From Chloroflexota bacterium (GTDB lineage: Bacteria > Chloroflexota > Limnocylindria > Limnocylindrales > CSP1-4): a stretch of 64,000 nucleotides of DNA. Location of the stretch: assembly GCA_003169735.1 (NCBI GenBank), contig PNAP01000007.1, forward strand, positions 43,738-107,737. Reading direction: 5' to 3'. Each line of letters starts with the position of its first letter. Position 1 is the first letter of the stretch. Both the position numbers and the translations under genes were made by a program. Under the pieces are notes generated by a model. The model was not told the origin of the DNA. It saw nothing but the letters and a program-made list of their open reading frames with translations, and made no database searches. Below are positions 2,066 to 63,050 of this stretch, one piece after another.

Positions 2066-5000
2066 CTAGGCGAGGCCGACGGGCGTGGCAAGGTCGGACG
2101 GTCGGTCGACGTCCCGGAGTGATCGAGCCTCAGCATCGAATACGCGCCAATCGGCCTCCGGGATGACTCGGAGTGCCAGCACCTGCTGGAGAGCGCGGAG
2201 GCTCGATTCCCCGGACGCCGCCAGATCGGAGGCCGCGGCGACGGCGGCGCTGCGGTCAAGGACGATGGGGAGGCGCTGGATCTGGCCGGACGATTCGAGC
2301 ACGACGCCCTGATCGACGTCATAGCGGTAGCTCCCGTCGGGAGCGGCGAGCCGCTGGAGCATGGCGCGGATGACGGCGGTTTCCACCCACGGCATGTCGC
2401 CGGCGATGACGGCGAGGAGCGGCCCCGTCGCCCGCTCGGCACCGGCGGCGAGTCCGGCCAGTGGCCCGGCGAACGGCTGCGGATCGAGCACGACACGGAT
2501 CGGCACGGGCAGGTCGTCGGGGAGCGGCACGGACAGGCCGCCGGCCGGCCCGACGACGATGACCTCGCGGCAGACATTGGCAAGCGCGCGAATCGCATGG
2601 TGGAGGAGCGGCCGGCCATCGAGCGGCTCCGCCATCTTGTCGCGGCCGAAGCGTCGAGAGCGGCCGCCCGCCAGGACGATGCCGGACGAGGCCGGGGTCA
2701 GATGCCTCGGTGCCGGCGACGGCTCTGCGGAGCGGCGGCGACGGAGCGTCGCGGCGGCCGCGGCGGTCGCTGCGGGCGCGGTTGCGACGGGCACGACCTC
2801 GACCACCGCGTTGTAGTCCGGGACCAACGCGACCGGATCCCGCCGGCCGGGCGCGATGAGCGGATTCGCCTCCGGGAAGAACATCTGCACGTTGCCGGGC
2901 CGGATCTCGGCAAGGGTGATCCGCGCCGCGACCTCGCCCGTCTCGGACCGCACCACGACCCGGTCTCCCTCGGCCAGACCGAGCGCTCGGGCGTCCGAAT
3001 CGGCCATGAACAGCGCATCGCGCTCCCCGCCCGTCAGGGGATCGCGCGCCTTCCAGACCATCGAGTTGAACTGCTTGCCGCGGCGGGTAGCCAGCAGGAA
3101 GCGCCCGGGCTGGAGCTCGACCTCGCGGGGTCGGACGGTGGCGAAATGAGCCTTGCCATCGGCCGTCGGGAAGATCCAGCCGTCGCATAGCCGCTCGCCA
3201 CCCCACTGGATCGCGTCGCCGGTCTTGGCCAGGTGCTGGATGCCGTCGTAGAACGGCACGATGCGTGCGATCTCCTCGCGGATCGCCTGGGCCGATTCGA
3301 AATGGCAGAGGGTGGCCGCCCGCTCGGGATCCACCCGGTGCGCCAGCTCCAGCAGCGACTCCCACTCGCTGCGTGCCTCGCCGACCTGTGGGTGGGCAAG
3401 CTCCGGCGAGAACGCCACGCGGCGCTCGGTGGTCGTTTCGGTGCCGCCGCCGGGCTGCTCATAGCGGGTCGTGGCCGGCAGGAGCAGCACCTCCTCGCCC
3501 GGGTCGATGAGCATCTGCGAGCTGACCATGATGTCCTGGTGGACGCGCAGCGGGACGCGCTCCAGGGCCCTCGCGACGTCCGCCGGATCGGGCAGCGTCT
3601 CGAGGAAGTTGCCACCCACCGACCAGAGCACGTCCAGCTCGCCGCGGCCGGCGGCCTCGACCATCTCGGCGGCTGAGCGGCCGCGCTCGCCGCGGAGCGG
3701 GAACCCCCAGCGCGCGCCGAGGTCCGCGGCCGCGTCTTCGGTGATCGGCACACCGCCCGGGAAGACGGTCGCGTACGCGCCCATCTCGGCGCCGCCCTGC
3801 ACGCCGGAGTGGCCGCGAATGGGCATCAGTCCCGTGCCCGGCCGCCCGACATTGCCGCGCGCCAGTGCCAGGTTCATGATCGCCGACACGTTGTCCGTGC
3901 CGCAGACGTGCTGCGTGATGCCCATCGACCAGACGAAGACGGCCGTCTTCGCCGCCGCGTACATGGTCGCGAACCGGCGGATGTCGTCGACGGTGGCGCC
4001 ACTCCAGCGGGCCAGATCCGTGAGCGGGGTCCGCGCCAGCTCCTCGCGCAGATCCTGCCAGCCGTCGGTGTGGCGGGCGATGAAGTCCTCATCGACCGCG
4101 CCCGGGCCGCCATCCTCGATGAGCACCTTCAGCACGCCGTTCAGGAACGCGATGTCGCCGCCGATGTTGACCGGGAAGAACTCGTCGGTGATCTTCGTGC
4201 CGAAGATGGCGCTCTCCGGGTTCGATGGCACCCAGTAGTGCTCGAGGCCCGGCTCGCGGAACGGGTTGACGACGGCGACCTTGCCGCCGCGCTTCTTGGC
4301 CATGTAGAGGTACTTCATGAAGACGGGCTGCGCGTTGGCGACGTCCGAGCCGAAGAGGACGGTCAAGTCTGATTCGATGACGTCCCGGTAGGAGCAGGTG
4401 GTGGCAGCCACACCCAGCGCATGCTTGAGCGCCCCGGTCGACGGCGCGTGGCAGATGCGGGCCGCGTTGTCGATGCTGTTCGTGCCGAAGAAACGCGCGA
4501 CTTTCTGGGCGACGTAGTAGGTCTCGTTGGTGAGGCCGCGCGCGGTGAGGTAGAAGCCGAGGCGGTCGTCGCCGGGCATCGTGGCCGCGGCCGGGTCAGT
4601 CGGCGGGGTGCTCGCGGCCCTCGCCCGGACGATCCGGTCCGCCACCAGGTCGAGCGCCTCCGGCCAGGAGATGCGCCGAAACCCGAGTTCACCGCGCCGC
4701 CGGAGCATCGGGTACGGCAACCGCCCGAGCTTTCGCAGGCTTGCACTGTCGAGCTCGCGCAGGTTGTCGACCACGGCCAGCCGCTCGGGGTCGAGCGGGC
4801 CCATCGTGTTGACCTGGAGCAGGTTGAGGCGCGTCGTGCAGAGATGGACGCCGTCCATCGTCCAGTCCTTGAAGCCGGCCACGCCGAGCGCGCATCCGTC
4901 GCACACGCCCTTGCGCAGGATCCGCCACGCGTACGGCAGATGGCGCCAGTTCTCGCGGACGGTGCGCGCCATCTCCCAGTAGTGATTCGGCTTCTGCCGG

Positions 5001-5245
5001 TCGAGTCCGTTCGGCACGAGCCCGACCCACAGGCGCGGATCGATCCGGCGAGCCTTCTTGCGCGGCGGTCGCAGGGAGACGCGCGGATCCGCGTTGGGCA
5101 GGGCCTCGGCGGCGGGCGGGGGTTCGTGCGGATCGGGCCCGTGCTGCTCGGTGGTCATCGCCTCCGAGTATGCATGCGCGTATCGGGTCGCGGCCTCAGC
5201 GCCCGGCGCCTCGCCGCGAAGCGAAGAGCCGCGTTCCGGCGGCAT
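2066..5245 (-). CDS. FdhF/YdeP-family molybdopterin (bis-MGD) oxidoreductase fused at its C-terminus to a MobA-like molybdenum-cofactor guanylyltransferase domain
   Basis: N-terminal 4Fe-4S motif 'CDGCALGVAGFKDWTMDGVHLC' and the downstream molybdopterin-oxidoreductase body (~800 aa) match YdeP/FdhF-type enzymes. After an Ala-rich linker, the last ~230 aa ('IVLAGGRSRRFGRDKMAEPLDGRPLL...') match MobA (plus-strand coordinates ~2066-2760). It is a single uninterrupted ORF. Confidence 0.8.
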   Translation of the reverse strand: MPPERGSSLRGEAPGAEAATRYAHAYSEAMTTEQHGPDPHEPPPAAEALPNADPRVSLRPPRKKARRIDPRLWVGLVPNGLDRQKPNHYWEMARTVRENWRHLPYAWRILRKGVCDGCALGVAGFKDWTMDGVHLCTTRLNLLQVNTMGPLDPERLAVVDNLRELDSASLRKLGRLPYPMLRRRGELGFRRISWPEALDLVADRIVRARAASTPPTDPAAATMPGDDRLGFYLTARGLTNETYYVAQKVARFFGTNSIDNAARICHAPSTGALKHALGVAATTCSYRDVIESDLTVLFGSDVANAQPVFMKYLYMAKKRGGKVAVVNPFREPGLEHYWVPSNPESAIFGTKITDEFFPVNIGGDIAFLNGVLKVLIEDGGPGAVDEDFIARHTDGWQDLREELARTPLTDLARWSGATVDDIRRFATMYAAAKTAVFVWSMGITQHVCGTDNVSAIMNLALARGNVGRPGTGLMPIRGHSGVQGGAEMGAYATVFPGGVPITEDAAADLGARWGFPLRGERGRSAAEMVEAAGRGELDVLWSVGGNFLETLPDPADVARALERVPLRVHQDIMVSSQMLIDPGEEVLLLPATTRYEQPGGGTETTTERRVAFSPELAHPQVGEARSEWESLLELAHRVDPERAATLCHFESAQAIREEIARIVPFYDGIQHLAKTGDAIQWGGERLCDGWIFPTADGKAHFATVRPREVELQPGRFLLATRRGKQFNSMVWKARDPLTGGERDALFMADSDARALGLAEGDRVVVRSETGEVAARITLAEIRPGNVQMFFPEANPLIAPGRRDPVALVPDYNAVVEVVPVATAPAATAAAAATLRRRRSAEPSPAPRHLTPASSGIVLAGGRSRRFGRDKMAEPLDGRPLLHHAIRALANVCREVIVVGPAGGLSVPLPDDLPVPIRVVLDPQPFAGPLAGLAAGAERATGPLLAVIAGDMPWVETAVIRAMLQRLAAPDGSYRYDVDQGVVLESSGQIQRLPIVLDRSAAVAAASDLAASGESSLRALQQVLALRVIPEADWRVFDAEARSLRDVDRPSDLATPVGLA

Positions 5246-5600
5246 CGCACCAGATCAGGCGGGCCTCCTCGGGCATGGGCGCCGCCGCACCGGCTGCATG
5301 GGTGCCGGCAGACGCAGTCAGCGGCTTACGTCACCTCGACGCGAATCTGGCCAATCGGATGTCGTCCTTGTCGACCGATCTGGTTCACCTGACCCATGCA
5401 CCCGGTACGCCCAGCCACAAGCCTTGACTCCGCCCGTCCTTGAGCGAGCCGACCGGCGTAGAACCATTCGTTCACGCTGGCAGCACCCATGCAGGCGGTA
5501 CACCGCCGGTCAAACCGCGGCACGTGGTCAATCCGATCTCGGCCGACGGGCCGCGAAGAGTCGAGTTGATGCCGCGTCGCACCAGATCAGGCCCGGGTCG
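5215..5600. repeat. cluster of short dispersed/inverted repeats (left flank of the XRE gene)
   Basis: Direct repeat of ~50 bp ('gccgcgaagag...gcgtcgcaccagatcaggc') at ~5215-5265 and ~5549-5600. Motif 'cccatgca(g/c)(g/c)cggtac' at ~5393 and ~5484, and its reverse complement 'ccggctgcatgggtgccgg' at ~5290. Confidence 0.6.
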
Positions 5601-6319: not shown

Positions 6320-6500
6320 CCGATTAGCTGCGGATCACCCCCGACTTGACCGGCTGCCCGGCGGGCTTACGGCTGATTTCTGGCGTCCTACCCGTGCAGT
6401 CGGTGCTGGGTCGCCGAAGGCGCTCGGTGGCCGACCGCGCAAGCCGCCTCGATCGGCTAGTGGCGGCGGTTCACGCTTGCAGCACCCATGCAGTCGGTAC
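6290..6500. repeat. same repeat family (right flank of the XRE gene)
   Basis: 'ccggctgcatggttaccg' at ~6291 and 'ttcacgcttgcagcacccatgcagtcggtac' at ~6467. The latter is a near-identical direct copy of 'ttcacgctggcagcacccatgcaggcggtac' at ~5470. Confidence 0.55.
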
Positions 6501-6587
6501 GACTCGGCCGAAGGATCGACTGGTACCGGCCGGAAAGTGGGAGAAGGTGGGCAGAGCTCCCGTCGCCGCTGTCGAGGGACCGCTTGG

Positions 6588-6688
6588 CAGCCGAGGATAG
6601 CCGGGGCAAGGCACCGCCGAGGGACTGCATCGTGGTCGGCCGCGGCCGAGGATCGCCGGGGCGGCGGCCAGGGATCGCCGGGGCGGCC
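6588..6688. repeat. three copies of a ~20-bp GC-rich motif (GCCGAGGATCGCCGGGGCGGC), two of them in tandem
   Basis: Copies at 6590-6607 ('gccgaggatagccggggc'), 6645-6665 and 6666-6687. The last two abut each other. Located 270-370 bp upstream of the XRE gene start and immediately 3' of the fdhD stop. Confidence 0.55.
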
Positions 6689-6703
6689 GAGAGCCACTCC
6701 GCG

Positions 6704-7576
6704 CTACCCGTTGAGGTCGATGCGCTCGCGGCCGGTGTAGATGTTGAAGCGGTCGGCGCGGAGGAAGCCGATCAGGGTCAGATTCAGACGAGCGGCGGTG
6801 GCGACGGCGAGTGCCGATGGGGCCGACACGGCCGCCAGGATCGGGATCCCGGCCATCGCGGCTTTCTGGACGATCTCGAACGAGACTCGGCCGGAGACGA
6901 GCAACACGTCGCCGCTGAGTGGCACGCGGCCGGCCAACGCCATCGCGCCGATCAACTTGTCCAGGGCGTTGTGGCGGCCGACATCTTCGTGCAGCGCGAC
7001 CAACTCACCCGCGGGCGTGAAAAGCGCCGACGCGTGGAGTCCACCGGTCGATTCGAACACCGACTGCGCCGCGCGCATCGACCCCGGGAGGCCGATGAGC
7101 ACGGATCGACCGACGACCAGACCCGGCCCGAGCGGCGAGCAGCGAGCGGCGATGTCGTCGATCGAGGCTTTGCCGCAGATCCCGCAACTCGCCGTCGCCA
7201 CGAAATTCCGCTCGGCCACGCGCGAGGCATCGAAGGCACCGGCAAGGCGGACCGTGATCTCGTTCTCGGGCTGAGCCATCCGCGCCGGGTCACCCGCCTC
7301 GAATCGGGCGCCGGCGAGGTCGGTCGGGCGAACCAGTCCCTCGGACACGAGGAAGCCGGCCGCCAGCTCCCGTTCCGCACCCGGGGTTCGCATCGTGACC
7401 GCGACATCGACCGGGTCGTGGCCCGGCCCGCAGGCGCGGATCTCGAGCGGCTCCTCTCCGACCAGGCGCTCGTCGCGTTCCACCGATATCTCGCCCGAGA
7501 CGGCCAGGACACGCGCGGTGCCGGTCGTCCGCAACCAGCCAGCAAGCGGATCGTCGGGCAGATGGGCGGCGGCCAT
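6704..7576 (-). CDS. fdhD: formate dehydrogenase accessory sulfurtransferase FdhD
   Basis: 'SCGICGK' catalytic-cysteine motif and 'GRHNALDK' are FdhD hallmarks. Length 290 aa. Confidence 0.9.
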   Translation of the reverse strand: MAAAHLPDDPLAGWLRTTGTARVLAVSGEISVERDERLVGEEPLEIRACGPGHDPVDVAVTMRTPGAERELAAGFLVSEGLVRPTDLAGARFEAGDPARMAQPENEITVRLAGAFDASRVAERNFVATASCGICGKASIDDIAARCSPLGPGLVVGRSVLIGLPGSMRAAQSVFESTGGLHASALFTPAGELVALHEDVGRHNALDKLIGAMALAGRVPLSGDVLLVSGRVSFEIVQKAAMAGIPILAAVSAPSALAVATAARLNLTLIGFLRADRFNIYTGRERIDLNG

Positions 7577-47095: not shown

Positions 47096-47377
47096 GTGAT
47101 GGCCAGCCAGGGGCCGATGGCCGACGAGGCGCGCGCCGACCTTCGCAGCATCATCGAGGAGAAGGGCCACGCCGTCGACGTGGCGCGCAAGGCCGTGGCG
47201 CGCCTGGACGACGCGTTCGCCATGGGGGCGCTGCAACGCACGCCGTTCATCGACCAGGCGCTGCGCGACCTCGAGGTCGCTCTGGAGCAGGACGACGGCC
47301 AGAAACTGGGCGGCAAGAGCTCCGAAGCGTCCCGCTTCATCCTGCACGCCATCGAGCGCATGCTCGACGACGCGTAG
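47096..47377 (+). CDS. hypothetical small protein (93 aa)
   Basis: Strong Shine-Dalgarno sequence (AAGGAGGG) upstream of the ATG. No recognisable domain. Confidence 0.45.
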   Translation: MMASQGPMADEARADLRSIIEEKGHAVDVARKAVARLDDAFAMGALQRTPFIDQALRDLEVALEQDDGQKLGGKSSEASRFILHAIERMLDDA

Positions 47378-47384
47378 GGCTGAG

Positions 47385-47774
47385 GTGCCACACGGCGGAG
47401 AGTATCGGGTGTTGACTGGCTGGGAGAACCGCGCCATCGCGCGGTTGCTGGAACCCGAGTTCCCCGGTCGATCCGAGTTGTGTCTCCAGCTCGATCGCGC
47501 CAGTGCAAAGACGATCGACGATCACGGCAACGGTCACGGGTGCATCGACATCCGTTCACATTCCCCGGCCATCGCTGAGGTGCTGCAGCGAGTCCCCTCG
47601 GAAGGTCAGGCAGCAGATGCGGACGGGGTCGACATCCACGTGCTCCTCCACGTGGTCGGTGGGCGGATGTCGGAACTCGAGATCTTCAAGGACGACGGAT
47701 CCGACGTCGTTCGGTTACCAGATCCCGACGACATCGACGTCTTCGTGTTCGATCCGGCTTGGAATGGGGAATAG
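47385..47774 (+). CDS. hypothetical protein
   Basis: ORF with a possible GTG start at ~47408 after a GGAGAG sequence. No recognisable motif. Confidence 0.35.
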   Translation: MPHGGEYRVLTGWENRAIARLLEPEFPGRSELCLQLDRASAKTIDDHGNGHGCIDIRSHSPAIAEVLQRVPSEGQAADADGVDIHVLLHVVGGRMSELEIFKDDGSDVVRLPDPDDIDVFVFDPAWNGE

Positions 47775-48691: not shown

Positions 48692-49525
48692 CTAGTTGCG
48701 GCGAAGCTCCAATTGCCGCGCGTCCACGGCCAGCGGGCGCAGATGGCGCGACAGGTGGCGGATCTCGCGTTTCAGCACCGCGTCCAGGCCGCACAGCCGG
48801 CCGACCGTGTCGGGCGCCTCCAGCAGGTCCTGCCGCGTGGCCAACTCCACCTGGATGAGCGCGGTCAGCAGGAACGAGAGGGCGGTCGGGTCGTCCGAGG
48901 CGGCCAGCCGATGGGCTGCCGCCATCAGCAGGTCACGCCGCTGTTCCTCGGACAGGAGCTTCGTGTCGAGGACCGGTTCCAGCGGCGGCGGCTCCTCGAC
49001 CTCAGCCATCATGCCGCCGATGTCCAGCGGCTCTGGTGTACCGGACGTGTCGTCGGGGGCCTCGATCTCGACTTCGATCTCGATCTCCGGCCCGTTGTCG
49101 GCAAGGGCAGGCTGGAGGAGCTCGAGGTAACGGATGAACCGACGCCCGACCTGATCGGCCAGGCCCTTGGCCTCGGCATCGCCGCCTGATTCCTCGGTGA
49201 TGAGCGTCACATCGCCGACGAGGTACGGCTCGCGGTCGGCTGACACGCTCGTCACGCGGAACCGCCGCGGACCGATGGTCACGATGTCCAAGCGGCCATC
49301 CGGGTAGCGGCCGGCACGCCGGATGACCGCCGTCGTGCCGATCTCAGCCAGGCGCTCGGGCGGCGCGCCTGCCTCCCGACCCTCGCGGATGAGGACGACC
49401 CCGAACGGCTCGCCACGCTCGATGCAGCGGGCGATCATCAACCGATAGCGCTCCTCGAAGATGTGGAGCGGCAGGGCGACGCCCGGACAGAGGACGGAAT
49501 GGAGGGGGAAGAGCGGGATCTCCAT
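48692..49525 (-). CDS. LON N-terminal (substrate-binding) domain-containing protein
   Basis: 'LFPLHSVLCPGVALPLHIFEERYRLMI' is a Lon N-terminal domain signature. 277 aa with an acidic linker. Confidence 0.75.
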   Translation of the reverse strand: MEIPLFPLHSVLCPGVALPLHIFEERYRLMIARCIERGEPFGVVLIREGREAGAPPERLAEIGTTAVIRRAGRYPDGRLDIVTIGPRRFRVTSVSADREPYLVGDVTLITEESGGDAEAKGLADQVGRRFIRYLELLQPALADNGPEIEIEVEIEAPDDTSGTPEPLDIGGMMAEVEEPPPLEPVLDTKLLSEEQRRDLLMAAAHRLAASDDPTALSFLLTALIQVELATRQDLLEAPDTVGRLCGLDAVLKREIRHLSRHLRPLAVDARQLELRRN

Positions 49526-49605
49526 CTTCTCGGTGATCTCGACCGGGCCGAAAAAGGAACGAGCGAGCCGCGAAGGGCTCGCCCGTAGATCAGCCGAAGG
49601 TCAGG

Positions 49606-50028
49606 TCAGTGGTGGCAGCCGCCCGGGCTGCCGGCCGAATCGGCCGTCCGGAAGCTGCTGCCGCAACCGCACGCTGAAACGGCGTTGGGATTGTTGACCG
49701 TGAAGCCGGCGCCCATGAGGGTGTCGAGATAGTCGATCTCGGAACCGGTCAGATGCTGGGTGCTCTGCTGATCAACGTAGACATTGATGCCCTTGCTCTC
49801 GACCGTGATGTCCTCAGACGTTGGCTGGTCCTCGAGCATCATGCCGTAGCGGAATCCCGAGCAGCCGCCGCTGTAGACGTAGACCCGAAGACCGACCGCG
49901 GTATTCGGATCGTCGGCGGTGAGCTCATGAAGCTTGGCGGCCGCTGCGTCGCTCAGGACGACGAGCGGCGGCGCCTGGACGTCGATGAGGCGCTCCGGCT
50001 TCGGGGCGATGGGCTGGGTTTCGATCAT
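49606..50028 (-). CDS. iron-sulfur cluster insertion protein (ErpA/IscA/HesB family)
   Basis: HesB signature 'SACGCGSSF' at the C-terminus and 'SGGCSGFRYG'. Confidence 0.85.
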   Translation of the reverse strand: MIETQPIAPKPERLIDVQAPPLVVLSDAAAAKLHELTADDPNTAVGLRVYVYSGGCSGFRYGMMLEDQPTSEDITVESKGINVYVDQQSTQHLTGSEIDYLDTLMGAGFTVNNPNAVSACGCGSSFRTADSAGSPGGCHH

Positions 50029-50152
50029 GTTGGAAGGTGCCTCCTGGCCCTTGAGTCGTTTCCATGGCCGTCTCTCGACGCCAGTCGGTGCATGGTACGG
50101 GCGGAGGCGGGTTTCGGCAAGCGTGACGTTCGTCGGCGCGGTGCCGACGGCG

Positions 50153-52549
50153 TCAATGCGTCGCGAATACCTGGGTGCCGACCAACAGGATCCCGAAGAC
50201 GATGAACACGACGACGATGATGGCGACGATCGTGAGCAGGATGTTCAGGGCACGCGACCGCGTTCCCTGGTCGCTGCTCGGCACGGAACGATCCGGCTCG
50301 CCGGTCAGCAGCCAGAGCGCGCCAGGGGCTGGCGAGTCGCCCGGTGCCGACGCCGCAGCGGCGGCACGTTGACGGAACTGGGCGCGCAACTGAGCCTCAG
50401 GGGTCATCGCTCCGGTCAACGCGGCCTGCGAGCTGGCGCCGACCGACTCGAGCGATCGGCCTGGCGCCGCGCTCGGTACCAGACTCTGCAGATCCCGCGG
50501 CGCGTTGCCGGTCTCGGAGCCACGTTCCGGCGAGAGAGCCCCCGGCCCCGATGTCTCGGTATCCGGAGCTGGGCTGAGCACCGAGAAGGTCCGCCCGCCC
50601 GACGGAGACTGTCGGTCCATGATCCCCTGCTGCGACCAGCGGGGCAGCGCGGCGTCGTGGCCGCCGTCCGGGAACGGCTCGCTCAACACCGCCAGTTGTG
50701 GCGTAGGCGGCCATGCCTCTTCAGCGAGCTTGCCATCGCTGGGTGATCCGTCGAGGAACGAGGATCCTACGGGCGCAGGATCCTCTGACACCGGAGCGAG
50801 TTGAGCGGGCGCGTCGGCTTCGGGCGGGGTCGCGGCAACCCACGGCGCAGGACCCGTCGTCGAGCTCATCGGTTCCGCCGCTGGCGCTTCCGCATGCACC
50901 GTATCGACGAATGGGTCGGCGACAAGGAGTGGTTCGGCGGCTGGCGCCGCCGCGAGCGGTGGCTCGGCGACGTGCGGCTCGGACGCCGGCGCCCGGTCGA
51001 ACAGGGACGAAAGGAACGCCCGGTCGGGAGTCGGGCCGAGCGGCATCCCCTGGGGCGGCACGGCGACATGCCCATGACTGGCTGCGGCAAGATCCGCGGC
51101 CTCGGGCGCCACGGTTTCCGGGTCTGCGCCGCTGTCCTCGGGTGCGGCTTCCGAGTCGGCCTCGGTGACCTCTGCCTCAGCCGCGGGCAGCCCAAGCGCC
51201 TCGAGCCGTTGGGCGATGCGTCGCTCGGAGGAATCGGTGGTTGGCGGTCGAAGCGAACGGAAGGCGAATCCCAGGTCGGTCGGATCCGCGGCATCGAAAT
51301 CGGTCAGCGCCGTGGCTCCATCCGGCATGGGCGCATCGGCACTCGTCCCGGGCTCGGTCATGGCAACCGAGACAGGAGTCTCAGCGGAGACGGGAGTCTC
51401 AGCCGACGCAGCAGCGTCGGCAGGGGCGGGCATCTCGGCCGGTTCGATCCACCAATGGTCATCAAGAGGGGTGGGTGGCGACACGGCGTCAAAACCGTCC
51501 TCCGTGTCGTGGCCGTCGTCGAGGTGCTCCACCGATGGAGCCTCTGTCGGCACATCCGGAGTTCCGTCCACCGGCCCGGCATCCGCCGCCGTGTCCTGAG
51601 ACATAGGCTCGGTGCTGGGCGGCTCGTCCGGCTCGGCGTCAGGCGCGGTCGTGGCCGCCGCCGCTGTCGTCGGAGGTGCCACGGCGGATCGCCATGCCGG
51701 GTGAACCGGTAGTGATGAGGGCGTCTCTGGGGCCGTCGGATGGGTCCAGTCGTCGGCGTCGAAGGTTCGATGGGCGTCGGCCGTCGTGTACGGCTGGACC
51801 TCGAACGGCTCGTGCGCATCTGGGCCAGTGTCGAGCAGCTCGACATCGACCGGCAGCGCGGCGTCCCTACCCGCCGCGTATCCCGCGACCGCATCGTGAG
51901 GCACCTCTACCTCATGCGGGACATCCACGTCTTCGGCCTCGGGCACCGCGATGGTTTCATGGTCGAACCCGGTCGATTCCATCGGCGCGGTCCAGGCTGA
52001 TGCCGATCCAGGCTCGGCGGCTGCCTGCGCGGGCATCGATGGCATTCGGGTCGGCGCTCCGAAGACAGACGCCGGATGCGGCGTGATCGCCGGCGTGGAG
52101 GCGCGCGGGATCCACGCCGAAGCCAGAGATCGCGCCAGCGACGGAGCGGTTGCCGGCGGTTGACCGACCGACGGATCGGTCGCGATCTGCGGACTCAAGA
52201 CTGCCGCGGCGATGACCGGGGCATCGGCATCGGGGTCCCAGGGTTCGGCAGCAGGATCGCCGGCCTCGGGCTCAGCCGGCGCCATCGGATGGTCCCAGGC
52301 ATCTTCGGGCGGCACGATCGGCGCCGATGCGGACGGTGCGAGCGGCTGGAGATAGGGCGGCGCCAGCGGCGCGAAGTCGCGCGGCGGCGCGAAGTCGGGC
52401 GGCGGGGCGAGATCGGGCGGCGGCCCGACCGAGAACCCGGCGTGTTCGGCGGCCGAGGCCACGTCAGGGAGTCGCCACGGATCGTCTCCGCGCGCCGTGT
52501 CGTCATCCGGTTCCGGTGTCGTCCAGGGCGTGCCGCTCATCTCATTCAT
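50153..52549 (-). CDS. large acidic Pro/Ala/Asp/Glu-rich disordered protein with a single C-terminal transmembrane anchor
   Basis: ~800-aa low-complexity ORF ending in the hydrophobic helix '[26 protein letters not shown]'. Start ATG overlaps the thiolase stop (ATGA at 52546-52549). Plus-strand alternatives are Arg-rich shadow ORFs. Confidence 0.55.
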
Positions 52550-53796
52550 GTGGAAGCTCCCGTTGGATCGAGGCGCTCGACGACGGTGGCGATCCCCTGC
52601 CCCACGCCGATGCACATCGTGGCGAGCCCGTAACGGCCATTGCGTCGTTCGAGTTCATGGACCAGCATCGTGATCAACCGGGCGCCGCTCATGCCGAGCG
52701 GATGCCCGATGGCGATCGCGCCGCCGTTGACATTGACCTTGTCGCCGTCCAGGCCGAGCTCGCGGATGCAAGCGATCGACTGGCTGGCAAAGGCTTCATT
52801 GAGTTCGATCAGGTCCAGATCACCGACCGACAGACCAGCCCGACCGAGCGCTTTACGGGTGGCCGGGATGGGCCCGAGGCCCATGACCGATGGGTCGACG
52901 CCGGCCACAGCGGTCGAGACGATCCGCGCCAGCGGGCGCAAGCCTCGTGATCGGGCGAACTCGGCGTCGACGATGACGACCGCGCTCGCGCCATCGTTGA
53001 TGCCGGAACTATTCCCAGCCGTGACCGTGCCCGTCCCGTCGGTTCGAAAGGCGGGCTTGAGCCGAGCCAGCGCGTCGATGCTGGTGTCAGGCCGCGGATG
53101 CTCGTCGCGGTCGACGACGATCGGCTCGCCCTTCGGCTGTGGCACCGTCACCGGCACGATCTGGTCGGCGAAGCGACCTGCCTCGATGGCGGCGATCGTC
53201 CGCTGGTGACTCATCAATGCGAACGCGTCCTGGTCCTCGCGGCTGACGCGGCACTGGGCCGCGACGTTGTCTGCCGTCTCGCCCATCGAGTAGGGGTGGT
53301 ACTGCTCGGTGAGCTTCGGGTTCACGAAACGCCAGCCGAGCGTCGTGTCGACGGCCTTGCGGTCGCCGCGCTCGAACGGGCCCTCGGACTTCAGCGTGAC
53401 GTACGGTGCCCGAGTCATCGATTCGACGCCGCCGGCGACGAAGGCATCACCGTCGCCGACCATGATGGCGTGGGCTGCGCTGTTGATCGCCTGCAGACCC
53501 GAGCCGCAGAGCCGGTTCACAGTCTGGCCGCCGGTCTCGATCGAGAGGCCCGCCATCAGCCCGGCCATGCGAGCCACATTGCGATTGTCCTCGCCGGCCT
53601 GGTTCGCGGCGCCGAGGATGACATCCTCGACAAGGGACGGTTCAAGGCCGGAGCGCTCCACCGCAGCGCGGATCACGAGTGCCGCCAGATCGTCCGGGCG
53701 CACGCCGCGCAGGGCTCCGCCGTACCGCCCAACGGGGGTACGTACGGCGCTGATGATCCACGCTTCGCGGAGCGGGCGCGCGAGATCTCGGGTCAC
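52546..53796 (-). CDS. acetyl-CoA C-acyltransferase (thiolase)
   Basis: '[11 protein letters not shown]' active-site Cys and the C-terminal '[17 protein letters not shown]' / '[10 protein letters not shown]' thiolase signatures. Confidence 0.9.
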
Positions 53797-58755: not shown

Positions 58756-59325
58756 TCAGGTCGCGTCCGGCTTGCCGAGCAGCTCGGCTGTCTCGGCGTG
58801 CTCGATGTGCAGGTAGCGGCCGCGGAAATAGAGCAGCGGCCACGCGTCGGATTCGCGTGCCCCGAGGTCGACGATGCGTCCGAGGTAGAGCGTGTGGTCA
58901 CCGGCTTCGATGACCCGCTCGAGATCGCAGATGACGTATGCCAGCGCCGCATCGAGGATGGGCAGGCCGCCCGCGCCCTCGGCGTAGGCAGCGTTGCAGA
59001 AGGCGGTCCGCGGTAGGCGCGACGGGGCACCCGCGAAACAGTCGGACAAGTCGGTGCTTTCCTCGTCGAGGATGTTGACGGCGAAACGGCCGCCCGCGGC
59101 GATGACCGGGTGGATGGTCCGCTCTCCACCGACGGCGATGAGCACCAGCGGCGGATCGAGCGAGATCGATGTGAAGCTGTTGACGGTCGTGCCGATGGGC
59201 TGACGGGTGACCGTTCCGTCGGCGGCGGACTGCTCGTCGATGGCCGTGACCACGGTCACCCCGGTCGGGTATCGGCCCAGCACGGCGCGGTATCGGAACG
59301 GATCGATGGTGGGCGGTGCGGCCAT
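58756..59325 (-). CDS. flavin reductase-family protein (NAD(P)H:flavin oxidoreductase, HpaC-like)
   Basis: '[19 protein letters not shown]...[17 protein letters not shown]' is the split-barrel flavin reductase domain. Confidence 0.8.
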
Positions 59326-59507
59326 CGGCAGAGTCTAGTCAAAGCCACGATTTGTTCCCGAGGCTCCGCGTGAAGGTGCCTTTCGGCACTTGTCGAAGAG
59401 CCGCGCCGACTGCTTTTATTCAGGGGGATTCCGTGCGGCACCGTGGCTCAGCAGCCGCTGGGGCGGCTGGAGTGTTCGATGCCCCGGACGTTGGGGAGGA
59501 CCATCGA

Positions 59508-62500
59508 ATGCGTTGCCTGGATCGTTTCGTTTGGCGTCGGCGCGTGGGACTCGCCGCTGCGCTCGGGCTCTTCGGCCTTCTGTCGGTCGGGCTGGCTGGC
59601 GCGTCCGGCTCGGACCCGTGCGACACGGCTTGGAAAGCTCCCGTCTCCGGCGACTGGTCCGACGGGTCGAAATGGACAGGCGGCGTGCCCGATGCGTCGA
59701 AGCGGGCATGCTTCACCGAAGCCGGTTCGTACGTCGTATCGAAGACGACAAGCGCCGGTATCAGTGCGGGGAGCGTGTACGTGGGTCCGTTGGCCTCCGT
59801 GGCGCTCAGCGATGTGTCCGGCTACGGGTTGGGCCTCACCGTCGCCGATGACTTCACCAACGCCGGCACGCTCGATCTGCCGCACGGCATCAGCATCACG
59901 CTCCCGCCTGGCGGCACGGTCCACAACACCGGCACGCTGCACCTGCCGGCAAGTGGGACGATCAACGCCAACCTCGACAACAGCGGCATCGTCCAGCTGG
60001 TCGGCGGCGACCTCCAAGTCAACGGCACGACCTCCAACTCGGACTCGATCAGCGTGGCCGGCGGGTCGACCCTCTGGACGGCTGGCTTCAGCCAGACCGC
60101 CGGAACGGTCGACAACGCGGGCGCCTTCCAGAGCTCTGGCCCGGTGACCTACAACGGAGGCACGTTGTCGGGCCACGACGTCGTGCTCTACCACACCTCG
60201 CTGACCCTCTCACCCGATCTGTCCGGCACGGTCGCTTTCGGGTGTGCCCGTTACACCGATACCTGCCCGCTGCTGAGCAACATCCCGGCCGGGCTCTCGC
60301 TGACATTCCATGACTCACTCGGCTACGGCGTTGCCCTGACCGTCGCCGATGGCTTCACCAACGCCGGCACGCTCAGCCTGCCCGCCCCGACAGGTGTCAG
60401 CATCACCCTCCCCCCTGGCGGCACGTTCCACAACACCGGCACGCTGCACCTGCCGGCGGGCGGGACGATCAACGGCAACCTCGACAACAGCGGCACCATC
60501 CAGCTGGTCGGCGGCGAACTCCAAGTCAACGGCACGACGACCAACTCGGACTCGATCAGCGTGGCCGGCGGGTCGACCCTCTCGACGGCCGGCTTCACCC
60601 AGACCGCCGGAGCGGTCGACAACGCGGGCGCCTTCGTGAGCTCTGGCCCGGTGACCTACAACGGGGGGACCCTGTCGGGCCACGACGTCGTGCTCTACCA
60701 CACCTCGCTGACCCTCTCACCCGATCTGTCCGGCACGGTCGCTTTCGGGTGTGTGCGGTCAACCGATACCTGCCCGCTACTGAGCAACATCCCGCACGGG
60801 CTCTCGCTGACCATCAATGATGCGTCCGGCTACGGTGTCGTGGTGAGCGCCAGCGATGGCCTGACCGTCGCCGGAACGTTCCATCTGCCGGCCGGCATCA
60901 CCCTCACCCTCCCGCCCGGTGGCACGGTCCACATCACCGGCACGTTGCACCTGCCGGCAGGCGGGACGATCAACGCCAACCTCGACAACAGTGGCACCAT
61001 CCAGCTGGTCGGCGGCGACCTCCAAGTCAACGGCACGACGACCAACTCGGGCTCGATCAGCGTGGCCGGTGGCTCGACGCTCTCGACGGTCGGCTTCAGC
61101 CAGACCGCCGGAACCACGATCCTTCAAGGCTCAGCGTCCAACCTTGCCGGCGGCGGGCTCGTCGACATCAAGGGCGGGACGCTCGGCGGCATCGGCACCG
61201 TCAGTGGCACGGTGCACAACGGCGGCACCGTCAGCCCCGGCACCTCGCCGGGCCGGCTCACCATCGCCGGCACATACACCCAACTCGCCTCGGGCCACCT
61301 CGCCATCGAGGTCACCGGCACGGCCGCCTCATCCTTCGACCGCCTGGCCGTGACCGAGACGGCGACCCTTGACGGGACGCTCGCGATCACCACGAGCGGC
61401 TTCACGCCGGGCCCGGCCGACACGTTCGCGTTCCTGACCGCCGACTCCCGCAGCGGCACCTTTGCGGCTGTGACCGGGACGACCATCAGCCCGAGTCGCA
61501 CGTATGCCATCGAGTATTCGGCGGTCGGAGCTGGCCTGCACGTCGTGGTCCTTCCGCCGACAGTCTCGCTCACGCTGCCTCCCTTCACCAACTCTCGGAC
61601 CGTGACCGCGACCTTTGCCACGACCGATCTCGACGACGCCGGCATCGTCGGCTGGTGTCTCTCGGAATCGGAATCCAATCCTCCGCCCGATGCGTGGAAG
61701 GACACGAAGCCTCTCTCGTTCACCCTAACCGCTGGTGACGGCACCAGGAGCATCTACGCCTGGGTGAGGGACGGCAATGGCACCGTCTCGGCGTCGGACG
61801 AGGCGACCACCGTCCTCGACACCGTGAAGCCCACGGCTTCGCTCACGGCTCCCGCCACGAGTTCCACTCGTGCCATCGCGGTCACCGTCGGAGGATCCGA
61901 TGCCGGCGGTTCGGGTGTCTCCGCGTATGCCATCGTCGAGGGAACGACAGCTCCCGGCAGCGGCAACTCGGCATGGAAGGCGACCGCGCCGACCCAGTTC
62001 ACCCTGTCCACCGGAAACGGGGACAAGACAGTCAGCGCCTTTACGCGAGATGCCGCGGGCAACGTGTCCGACTGCGACACGAAGACCGTGACGCTCACCG
62101 TCGCAAGCGTTCCGGACGCCTCGACGGGTGTCACCGCCGAGGCGGGCAACGCCCAGGTCACCGTCAGCTGGTCCGCGCCCGCGCACGACGGCGGCAGCGC
62201 CATCACGGGATACACGGCCACGTCGTCACCGGGTAACCGGACCTGCACGACTGCAAGCGCCCTCTCCTGTGCCGTGATCGGCCTCACGAACGGGACCGCG
62301 TACACCTTCACTGTCACGGCTGCCAACGGAGTTGGCACTGGTCCGGCGTCAGCGGCCAGTCCTGCCGTGGTGCCCACGACCGGATCGCTCACGGCGACCC
62401 TTGCCGCGACCTCGATGGGTGCCGCGAAGAACTCGCCGATTCCGGTCGACCTTGGCTGGGCGAGCGGCCTCGCGGCCCCGTCGATCGGCAGCTGGACCCT

Positions 62501-63050
62501 CCAGGAGCGGGTCGGCACCGGGGCATGGACGTCGGTCGGTCTTCCATCGTCGACCGCGACCAAGATCACCGTGTCGCTCACCCCGAAGATCGCCGTGTCG
62601 TTCCGGGTCCGCCCGACGACCACGGCCGGAGCCGTCGGCCCATGGTTCACCGTCGCCACCTTCACTCCGAGCTCGCGCCAGGAATCGGCCAAGACGGTCA
62701 GCTGGAAGGGAACGGGCTGGAAGAAGGTCTCGAGCTCGGCGGCCTATGGGGGCACGCTCAGGGACGCGACCGCCAAGAACCGCACCGCCACGACCTCGTT
62801 CACCGGCATGTCGGTGGCCTGGGTCAGCACCCTGGGCAAGGACCGGGGACAAGCCGAGATCTGGCTCGACGGCGCCAAGGTCGCGACCGTCTCCCTCTAC
62901 AAGACGACCGCGGCCGCGCGTCAGATCGTCTGGTCGGCCAGCCTCGCCTCGGGCGGGAACCACACCCTGATGATCAAGGTGCTGGGCACGCACGCCACGG
63001 GCTCCAAGGGAAGCCGCGTCGACGTCGACGGGTTCCTGCTGTTGCAGTAG
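59508..63050 (+). CDS. large secreted surface protein with three tandem ~167-aa repeats, an FN3 domain and Ig-like domains
   Basis: ATG 59508 preceded by GGGGAGGA. Signal peptide '[22 protein letters not shown]'. Three near-identical repeats ('[18 protein letters not shown]...[54 protein letters not shown]'). The FN3-like segment is '[41 protein letters not shown]'. Confidence 0.75.
59820..61100 (+). repeat. intragenic tandem DNA repeats (period ~501-507 bp, 2 full + 1 partial copy, >85% identical)
   Basis: Unit starts at 'ggctacgg' at ~59820, ~60321 and ~60828. Long runs are identical between copies. Confidence 0.8.

Follow-up and report, generated by a model that had tools for sequence, protein, structure and literature searches.

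The 64,000-nt stretch of Limnocylindria (Chloroflexota) DNA analyzed here (the window) includes a long minus-strand gene for an acidic protein, at the end of a beta-oxidation-type operon. The sequence-only reading had placed a flavin reductase, hydrolase, EthD protein, three crotonases, 3-hydroxyacyl-CoA dehydrogenase, and thiolase in this operon and an Fe-S insertion protein (erpA) gene downstream, and all of them are present. The features around the gene are:

52546–53796, minus strand: thiolase, last enzyme gene of the upstream operon (PF00108 and PF02803, E = 1.7e-82 and 2.6e-51)
52557–52561, minus strand: Shine-Dalgarno-like GGGAG inside the 3′ end of the thiolase gene, 7 nt 5′ of the ATG
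52546–52549, minus strand: ATGA overlap, with the gene start (ATG, 52549–52547) on the thiolase stop (TGA, 52548–52546)
50153–52549, minus strand: coding sequence of the acidic, predicted disordered and tail-anchored protein, 798 aa
49606–50028, minus strand: Fe-S cluster A-type carrier (erpA/HesB-like) gene (PF01521, E = 2.1e-19), with its own AGGAGG, 124 nt downstream of the acidic-protein gene
49559–49586, minus strand: terminator-like hairpin after the Fe-S carrier gene, a weak candidate (1 site vs. 1.3 expected by chance)

The gene has 798 codons plus a TGA stop (50153–50155); its product had been given as 800 aa. The overlap with the thiolase stop is as first described. The ATG was taken as the start because the N-termini of homologs fall at the equivalent position and because of the thiolase overlap; an alternative GTG at 52615 adds merely an other-frame reading of the thiolase C-terminus. 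No promoter-like sites were found around the locus, no terminator-like hairpin between the gene and the Fe-S carrier gene, and no Rfam RNA family over 49000–53500. In relatives without the acidic-protein gene the thiolase is often directly beside erpA, at a spacing of about 70–350 nt, and in other lineages unrelated genes are inserted at this junction; the association with erpA looks like inherited gene order, not specific coupling. A link to a downstream LON N-domain gene was considered and rejected, this gene being adjacent in three of 15 gene-bearing loci vs. 32 of 62 others.

The predicted product (81.6 kDa, pI 4.05) is acidic and Pro/Ala-rich, as the sequence-only reading had it. It contains 148 Ala (18.5%), 126 Pro (15.8%), 69 Asp, and 54 Glu, with 28 Arg, a single Lys, and no Cys, for a net charge of about -96. 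Nearly all of this (-94) is carried by residues 1–700, beyond which the chain is about neutral. An almost complete lack of globular structure had also been proposed, and AlphaFold agrees: 596 of the 798 residues have pLDDT <50 and there is no globular domain, only three short helices besides the C-terminal one, although the underlying alignment is shallow (11 sequences, mostly C-terminal fragments). The mean on a disorder composition scale is 0.235, against 0.09–0.13 for folded neighbors, and the charge-hydropathy value is borderline (0.457 vs. a boundary of 0.458). By its composition and the absence of a modeled domain, the protein is thus predicted to be disordered. The description of such proteins as uncharacterized holds as well, with no match to Pfam, NCBIfam, or PDB sequences at E up to 1. 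The full-length protein is absent from a collection of 5.8 billion proteins, and the protein databases hold only fragments of its family. A search with the C-terminal 199 aa returned a single match, a fragment of the same protein; a scan of metagenome contigs with the protein found no relatives; and the literature searched contains no account of a protein of this kind or of the cell biology of Limnocylindria. Matches of homologs to PARP, YdhT, and DUF7160 are compositional and far under the cut-offs. No paralog was found in the window.

Genes of the same architecture were found in 16 other loci of related Limnocylindria, making 17 in all, in the same slot and orientation: each begins at the thiolase stop and is followed by the Fe-S carrier gene. 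The thiolase and acidic-protein genes meet as ATGA, as TGATG, or across a gap of at most 12 nt in 16 of 16 homologous loci, with GGAG-type sites at the equivalent place, and the thiolase C-terminal tail is longer where the gene follows (median 7.5 vs. 3 residues). Whereas the flanking genes are 69–86% identical, the highest value for the acidic-protein gene is 46% over 169 aa, and BLAST usually fails to detect it; apart from short motifs in the same order, a juxtamembrane LW.L, and the anchor, it is nearly unalignable. Lengths run from 225 to about 990 aa and net charges from -24 to -187, negative in every member, and spacers in homologs are freely replaced by acidic repeats (EP, AETAETEAV, or AEPEPEM). 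In a neighbor-joining tree of thiolase and erpA, built without bootstrap, 14 of the 15 genomes with the gene group in a single clade of their own, with L010 outside it, and no genome within the clade lacks the gene. Another 54 related genomes have the same thiolase without it, and in most relatives the operon stands without the gene. When 80 syntenic loci were searched in six-frame translation with a C-terminal profile, no remnants turned up in the 67 that lack the gene, and among the loci examined it was never found in another genomic context. This is an undescribed, fast-evolving family restricted to one clade of uncultivated Limnocylindria soil bacteria.

What has been kept within the protein is a small number of elements, listed here from the N-terminus with the stretches between them (all minus strand):

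50450–52549: predicted polyanionic disordered body (residues 1–700), containing 13 of the 14 Trp, mostly in [PA]-W-x-x-P contexts
52409–52549: N-terminal module (residues 1–47, TPW..PE ...), common to homologs P0002 and L020
52366–52428: short in-frame tandem repeat, 18-nt period, 3.5 copies
52055–52123: motif AWIPR...SVFG (residues 143–165), in the same order in P0002, L011, and L012
51440–51463: motif DDHWWIEP (residues 363–370), with WW.EP at colinear positions in P0002, L012, and L020
51369–51403: short in-frame tandem repeat, 18-nt period, 1.9 copies
50693–50722: 10-residue motif (residues 610–619), common to P0002
50351–50401: predicted basic helix (residues 717–733; AlphaFold helix, block pLDDT 72–86), its core identical in P0002 and near-identical in P0003
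50294–50320: juxtamembrane motif ALWLLTGEP (residues 744–752), the family's most conserved element, with L, W, and L invariant in both alignments (A1 and A2)
50174–50251: predicted transmembrane anchor (hydrophobic core residues 767–792, AlphaFold helix 762–797), from hydropathy, AlphaFold, and family comparison

A motif related to the N-terminal module, A(L/E)xxxGFxxxPP, is found in L009, L010, and L012; SVFG recurs in L013, L019, and L027, and WPP-type motifs across the family. The motifs are colinear among homologs and strongly enriched over six-frame background; the LW.L-type juxtamembrane motif, for example, occurs nine times in 7,778 family residues vs. four times in 1.9 million background residues. 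In 15 of 16 members, 1.3–3.05% (mean 2.2%) of the residues in the disordered part are Trp, vs. 0–0.5% in neighboring folded proteins; Pro is preferred at both -1 and +3 and Asp at +1, often as [PA]-W-x-x-P. Two more specific designs were considered and found unsupported. Evenly spaced aromatic "stickers" of the condensate type would require a regularity that is not seen (z from -2.0 to +2.7, with no trend), and the helix at 717–733, though of net charge +2, has a hydrophobic moment of only 0.03 and does not qualify as a membrane-surface amphipathic helix. With spacing no more even than random and no amphipathic helix, nothing points specifically to a condensate-type scaffold or to a membrane-surface helix.

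On balance, the reading we favor, with somewhat more confidence than doubt, is that these genes encode tail-anchored, intrinsically disordered membrane proteins that serve as cytoplasm-facing docking strands. The gene would be co-transcribed with the operon, and ribosomes finishing the thiolase would reinitiate on it, as the ATGA overlap and GGGAG site, conserved in all homologs, suggest. The product would be inserted post-translationally by its terminal helix, leaving 4–9 residues outside and the N-terminal 760 in the cytoplasm, a topology suggested by three things: no signal is present, basic residues precede the helix, and export of a chain with a charge of -96 is implausible. The unfolded chain would then extend from the inner membrane face as a long, tethered polyanion, along which ordered motifs centered on Trp, Phe, and Pro (the N-terminal module, AWIPR..SVFG, WW.EP, WPP.P, [PA]WxxP, and LW.L) may dock a folded partner, or several, and keep them at the membrane. 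Between the motifs the spacers vary freely, through tandem duplication and indels, and this accounts for both the range in length and the near-background codon bias described below.

The partners might be the enzymes of the operon itself, as the sequence-only reading had suggested: the strand would recruit the thiolase and others (crotonases, hydroxyacyl-CoA dehydrogenase) to the membrane as a metabolon, in an amount that translational coupling would adjust to that of the thiolase. At all 16 homologous junctions the start has stayed coupled to the thiolase stop despite near-total sequence turnover, the gene was found in this one context only, and the chain has multiple repeated motifs of a docking type. 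However, the same thiolase does without the gene in the 54 related genomes noted above, and since it abuts erpA directly in many of these, the pathway does not need the gene. That unrelated genes fill the same junction elsewhere makes position alone weak evidence, and inside a single clade vertical inheritance suffices to conserve it. The position, given these gene-less thiolases and unrelated insertions, may be just where the gene arose and stayed, and a dedicated metabolon appears unlikely.

It is also unlikely, to a similar degree, that the protein acts as a bulk polyanion, by its physical chemistry instead of specific binding by motifs. It would then form a dense brush of negative charge along the inside of the membrane, whose role would be to buffer cations, protons, or polyamines, to keep macromolecules away, or to imitate nucleic acid. 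This would suit the strong negative charge of all members regardless of sequence or length, the free exchange of spacers for acidic repeats, and the unconstrained length. It leaves unexplained the colinear motifs, the conserved N-terminal module, and the Trp enrichment, all of which indicate sequence-specific constraint. A fuller version of the docking strand can be drawn, in which a multivalent Trp-motif strand, peculiar to the clade and tethered to the membrane, brings together at the cytoplasmic membrane the operon's enzymes or some other defined set of partners, having arisen in a variable intergenic slot and growing by repeat expansion while docking motifs and anchor stay constant. In all this detail it should be regarded as rather improbable.

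The orientation of the chain bears on the docking strand and on an alternative in which the topology is opposite. An extended, acidic, Pro/Ala-rich region ahead of a membrane helix at the C-terminus is typical of surface proteins that span the cell wall, and the chain could by analogy be exported and anchored from outside, like Gram-positive surface proteins or Tat-inserted tail-anchored ones. There is a lone hydrophobic segment, with a Kyte-Doolittle 19-residue maximum of 3.46 in residues 762–798 vs. 1.07 for the next best elsewhere, and the helix at 762–797 is modeled with pLDDT 91–97. About 6–8 residues (GTQVFATH) follow it, so that the tail-anchored architecture first proposed stands while its tail of three residues does not; the post-helix tail is 4–9 residues in 32 of 32 members examined. 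Pooled over members, there are 40 Lys or Arg before the helix vs. 16 after it, and in the subgroup of the protein described here basic residues occur solely before it. In subgroup B the positive-inside signal is ambiguous, with about one basic residue per side, and this subgroup has one basic residue at the extreme C-terminus and an RR at position 8, which would favor export, as does the existence of Tat-dependent tail-anchored proteins (PMC10924467). However, hydropathy after this RR is only -0.8 to 0.5, which is not that of a Tat signal, and an N-terminal hydrophobic stretch of the Sec or Tat type is absent from all members. The 10-residue hydropathy maximum over residues 1–70 is 0.63 in the target and at most 1.3 in members (except for the internal SVFG motif in L011), where a real signal peptide scores 2.94; no RR occurs in this part of the target, whose first 30 residues have a net charge of -6. 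No sorting signal (LPXTG, PEP-CTERM, GlyGly-CTERM, etc.) was matched in NCBIfam at E up to 1, and at most one basic residue, never a cluster, follows the helix, with LW.L about 20 residues before it. A single C-terminal transmembrane helix and no N-terminal signal, with the start codon checked, are the features by which bacterial tail-anchored proteins have been recognized (PMC3087755). An exported, wall-spanning chain is accordingly quite improbable.

All of these readings suppose a functional gene. The sequence-only reading had allowed for a chance or shadow ORF, to be judged in part by GC3 against non-coding DNA. Of the six frames this one alone has no stops, against 6–16 in the others, and it scores best; none of 20,000 composition-preserving shuffles of the ORF stayed open. 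Its GC3 is 0.761, above the GC of pooled intergenic DNA (0.655) and below the GC3 of neighboring genes (0.83–0.89), and its synonymous codon bias is near background (-0.003 vs. 0.22–0.31 bits/codon for neighbors). The gene is present on six contigs whose DNA is 100% identical and so says nothing about selection; codon-position identity was measured on distant pairs in place of close-range dN/dS. In aligned family blocks nucleotide identity is 0.61, 0.70, and 0.41 at codon positions 1, 2, and 3, a pattern resembling that of the thiolase control (0.86, 0.91, and 0.53); the measure is partly circular, the blocks having been picked on a protein alignment; the two remaining frames of this DNA served as a control, and there identity is flat (0.33–0.41). 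Half (50%) of the conserved residues in these blocks are encoded by differing codons. This codon-position pattern and conservation over 17 loci exclude a chance or shadow ORF: 50153–52549 is a real gene. A single apparent frameshift is present in each of homologs L012, L026, and L090 and may reflect decay or an error of assembly. A broader non-functional reading would make the sequence a long ORF that is open by chance in high-GC DNA, or one that is newly born or in decay and translated only as a by-product of the thiolase, with expression of the Fe-S carrier gene downstream perhaps the one thing it affects. This reading could draw on the background codon bias and lower GC3, these frameshifts, the frequent skipping or truncation of the gene by gene callers, and the lack of database homologs beyond one clade, but it is largely refuted by the conservation data and highly improbable. 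The frame stays open in 14 of 17 loci, at lengths of 225 to about 990 codons; motifs and anchor are kept in frame; the codon-position signature is confined to that frame; the acidic product is opposite to the Arg-rich basic ones of surrounding random high-GC frames; and the gene is retained across the whole clade, within which thiolase identity falls to about 76%.

The family can be compared with several known systems. In architecture it resembles bacterial tail-anchored proteins such as Streptomyces coelicolor TAMPs and SecE (PMC3087755), E. coli DjlC/Flk (PMC6794478), and TssL (PMC3426401), which share the lone C-terminal helix, lack of an N-terminal signal, and a bulk predicted to be cytoplasmic, with 4–9 residues after the helix in the present family. 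There is no sequence relationship, and the known examples have a folded cytoplasmic domain where this protein has, by its predicted topology, a 760-residue polyanionic disordered chain. Listeria ActA is largely disordered, has a C-terminal membrane helix, and acts through the display of several FPPPP-type aromatic/proline motifs flanked by acidic residues, and the WPP[VIT]P sites of the present family are similar to these in style. ActA has a Sec signal peptide, however, and faces outward to bind host EVH1 domains; there is no homology, and the hosts of the present family are free-living soil or peat bacteria. ZipA, TonB, and TolA likewise join a membrane anchor to an extended charged region, long, rich in Pro, and variable in length, which bridges a distance and presents a binding element, but their anchors are N-terminal, they end in a folded binding domain, and TonB and TolA face the periplasm, whereas here the anchor is C-terminal and no folded domain is predicted. 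MamJ and PopZ are strongly acidic, Ala/Pro/Glu-rich, repeat-containing disordered proteins that organize partners (MamK for MamJ, ParB and others for PopZ) through short interaction regions. The present protein is also strongly acidic, repeat-containing, and predicted disordered, but it is unrelated in sequence and has a predicted membrane helix, while neither of these spans the membrane. The Glu-Pro repeats of one homolog resemble procyclic acidic repetitive protein (PF05887; E = 0.014, 15.8 bits vs. a cut-off of 100), but this match is compositional only and far below threshold, and the protein described here has none.

Large, fully disordered bacterial proteins are rare and poorly understood, and tail-anchored ones have hardly been studied. 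This family is a clean natural example, with 17 orthologs sharing position, anchor, and ordered short motifs while everything between has been rewritten; since only these are constant, the residues that matter are easy to tell. Such proteins are probably under-counted in metagenomes, because gene callers and word-indexed searches largely miss genes of this kind and the databases hold only fragments of the family. If the motifs do recruit enzymes or other partners to the membrane, motif-based disordered scaffolding, familiar in eukaryotes, would also organize bacterial cytoplasm, and if the multivalent strand is real the family would be a bacterial counterpart of eukaryotic disordered scaffold proteins.

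The target gene follows genes for a flavin reductase, a hydrolase, an EthD-like protein, three crotonases, a 3-hydroxyacyl-CoA dehydrogenase and a thiolase. An Fe-S A-type carrier gene (PF01521, with its own AGGAGG) lies 124 nt downstream, and beyond it come a terminator-like hairpin and a LON N-domain gene.

50153-52549, minus strand: target ORF, 798 codons
49606-50028, minus strand: Fe-S carrier gene, 140 aa, PF01521 match to residues 25-123 only

The thiolase TGA is overlapped by the target ATG (ATGA), with GGGAG 7 nt 5' of it, within the thiolase 3' end. A longer GTG start (820 aa) was rejected, the extra part being an alternative-frame reading of the conserved thiolase C-terminus; the ATG is preferred because homologues begin at the equivalent position. 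The product (81.6 kDa, pI 4.05) contains 148 Ala, 126 Pro, 69 Asp, 54 Glu, one Lys and no Cys, with a net charge of -94 over residues 1-700 and near neutrality over the last 100. Hydrophobicity is confined to one segment at the extreme C-terminus (core residues 767-792), with R-S-R before it and about six residues after it. The sequence-only reading had described the ORF, its coupling, acidic composition, anchor and neighbours accurately, except that the minus strand was left unstated for 50153-52549 and the tail after the terminal helix, put at 3 residues, is about 6-8. There is no paralogue within the window. About 24 residues extend the carrier protein N-terminally of its PF01521 match, and the C-terminal tail beyond the match ends in GGCHH.

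The sequence-internal evidence that the ORF is a gene is mixed. Its frame is the only one of six that is stop-free (the others have 6-16 stops) and the top-scoring one, and none of 20,000 composition-preserving shuffles remained open. GC3 (0.761) is above intergenic GC (0.655), contrary to the chance-ORF case framed earlier as GC3 no higher than non-coding DNA, and below that of the neighbours (0.83-0.89); synonymous codon bias is at background (-0.003 vs 0.22-0.31 bits per codon). The window is matched by the MAG GCA_003131785.1, and an identical gene occurs on several metagenome contigs.

Eighty syntenic loci were fetched via the adjacent carrier gene, almost all of them assigned by label to Limnocylindria or other Chloroflexota. 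Of these, 13 have a same-strand ORF directly upstream of it encoding an acidic (pI 4.05-4.7), Ala/Pro-rich protein with a terminal hydrophobic helix; three more (L089, L090, L091) came from protein searches. In all 16 homologous loci the gene starts at the thiolase stop (ATGA/TGATG overlap, or no more than 12 nt between the two), and a GGAG-type site precedes the start. An exhaustive HMMER scan of 1.84 billion representatives gave three matches: the target's own fragment, one other fragment, and P0002, a full-length relative encoded by L091 (37% identity over aligned columns). A C-terminal-module profile added 15, all short "hypothetical" fragments without Pfam domains, and the target had no match in Pfam, NCBIfam, PDB sequences or Rfam. 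A word-indexed search with it was empty, low-complexity words crowding out candidates; a 15-billion protein collection holds a 155-aa fragment and lacks the full-length sequence; and an intact 813-codon ORF at L089:4853-7294 is annotated only as its last 97 aa. The family is a reminder that such genes are under-called by gene callers and poorly held in databases.

Codon-aligned blocks from five homologue pairs are more alike at codon positions 1 and 2 than at 3 (e.g., identity 0.61/0.70/0.41), and different codons are used for 41-56% of the conserved amino acids. The thiolase behaves alike in the same genome pair (0.86/0.91/0.53), while the other two frames of the same DNA give flat identity (0.33-0.41). 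The codon-position pattern and the flat other frames indicate selection on the protein in the target frame, and that pattern together with homologue conservation rules out a chance or shadow ORF. Three homologous loci have one apparent frameshift each, past which the acidic, motif-bearing reading goes on in another frame:

L012, about 4880-5300, within a tandem repeat
L026, about 6480-6730
L090, about 6490-6790

L012 and L026 at least are "MFD" MAG assemblies, and the frameshifts could be assembly error or real decay.

By these comparisons the family is very narrow and very fast-evolving. For the same genome pairs, identity is 73-84% in the thiolase and 69-86% in the carrier, whereas the target-family protein reaches at most 46% over 169 residues and is mostly undetected by BLAST; lengths run from 225 to about 990 residues. 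Conservation lies in a series of short motifs in fixed order at variable spacing:

N-terminal module: TPW..PE...AExAGFSxGPP in the target's subgroup, MDNDLMARRLRPPSEP in the other
Further ordered motifs: AWIPR...SVFG; WW.EP; WPP.P
Additional motifs of the second subgroup: VPWDRP, APVLxD, GPTPP, LRIELAIVD, PRHPEFEPR, DPLxxLPAA
Juxtamembrane motif: [DE]LW.L..EP, about 20 residues before the helix, with L, W and L invariant
Terminal helix: conserved L-T at its start

The motifs are strongly enriched over six-frame background, with two confined to family ORFs; LW.L occurs nine times in 7,778 family residues, vs four in 1.9 million background residues. The spacers hold lineage-specific tandem repeats, including EP runs (long in L012), about twenty AETAETEAV/ADTAETEAV units in L014:5213-7921 (around residues 230-370), AEPEPEM units in P0002 (AEPEPEMAAEPE, around residues 140-250), and two short repeats in the target. 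Repeats of such size suggest growth of the chain through repeat expansion. In 15 of 16 members Trp is unusually abundant, at 1.3-3.05% of the disordered part (mean 2.2%; 0.53% in L011), vs 0-0.5% of neighbouring folded proteins, and its favoured neighbours are Pro at -1, Asp at +1 and Pro at +3. Evenly spaced aromatic stickers were tested for and unsupported, as was an amphipathic juxtamembrane helix.

AlphaFold2, run with a shallow alignment of 11 homologues, placed 596 of 798 residues below pLDDT 50 and predicted no globular domain and just four helices:

441-451
717-733
742-748 (ALWLLT)
762-797, terminal, confident

This agrees with the disordered, tail-anchored architecture first read from the sequence. 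The tail after the helix is 4-9 residues long in 32 members, and basic residues number 40 in the N-terminal flank of the helix vs 16 in the C-terminal one overall, a bias evident for the target's subgroup and ambiguous for the second. A Sec- or Tat-like hydrophobic region is absent from the N-terminus of every member examined, and in the second subgroup no such region follows the RR. Of the testable features that define bacterial tail-anchored membrane proteins (PMC3087755), the target has the C-terminal helix, the short tail and the lack of an N-terminal signal, and can be classed among them by these features. The family does not show the features of the Tat-dependent variant (PMC10924467), nor sortase/exosortase-type C-terminal signals (NCBIfam, helix flanks, N-termini). 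This combination makes a cytoplasmic N-terminus likely.

Of the 15 gene-bearing genomes, 14 group as a single exclusive clade in a neighbour-joining tree built from thiolase plus carrier (no bootstrap). The clade's internal split matches the two motif subgroups, and L010 is an outlier on a long branch. Since no gene-lacking genome falls within the clade, the gene probably arose once and was kept throughout. Outside it, 54 genomes have the same thiolase without the target gene. Thiolase and carrier genes abut in many of the genomes lacking it (spacing about 70-350 nt); in others unrelated genes lie between, often on the opposite strand. No remnants were found in loci lacking the gene, and there is no co-occurrence with the downstream LON N-domain gene. 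Genomes with the target gene have a longer thiolase C-terminal tail (median 7.5 vs 3 residues), and the longer tail carries the ribosome-binding site and overlapping start.

The junction (window 50029-52545; L009-L088) is a variable slot across Limnocylindria; where unrelated genes occupy it, for instance minus-strand ones for secreted proteins with signal peptides or ones for membrane proteins, thiolase and carrier genes are 750-1100 nt or more apart. In one genome the carrier gene has upstream of it a gene for another acidic, Ala-rich protein, of 1024 aa (L083:4793-7867), whose C-terminal helix is followed by a basic cluster (RRVRRR), an arrangement typical of sorting-signal surface proteins; this protein is outside the target family. 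Elsewhere in the window, a 1244-aa ORF divergent from the operon (59316-63050, plus strand) is a genuine gene, whose product has a fibronectin type III domain (E 6.5e-12) and otherwise matches no Pfam family. At 47096-47774 (plus strand), a 93-aa ORF without Pfam match is followed 8 nt on by a DUF6984 gene, a pair recurring at that position in related contigs.

The best-supported reading, toward which we lean with modest confidence, is a cytoplasm-facing, tail-anchored docking strand. Translational coupling would link the protein's expression to that of the operon, and the terminal helix would insert it post-translationally; a long polyanionic chain, presumably unfolded in vivo, would project from the anchor and display ordered Trp/Phe/Pro-centred motifs that folded partners may bind, while spacer length and sequence drift freely. 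A tether for the operon's own enzymes, as initially proposed, would fit the invariant coupling to the thiolase, but the operon exists elsewhere without the gene, and the idea seems unlikely. A bulk polyanion role is similarly doubtful and leaves the conserved motifs unaccounted for. An outward-facing, wall-spanning surface protein is less probable again, the family having no export signal, and a non-functional ORF is very improbable.

The target protein has no sequence relation to any described bacterial tail-anchored protein, and those have a folded cytoplasmic domain, which it lacks. ActA combines a C-terminal anchor with a disordered chain of aromatic/proline motifs, ZipA, TonB and TolA an anchor with a long Pro-rich linker, and MamJ and PopZ are acidic disordered hubs. 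The target resembles each in these respects, but differs by anchor position, topology or the missing folded domain; these are analogies rather than memberships. The family is an undescribed, clade-restricted group of tail-anchored disordered proteins, the target's host being an uncultivated lineage. It does not overturn current understanding, and offers a neat natural system in which to study how bacterial disordered proteins work through motifs.
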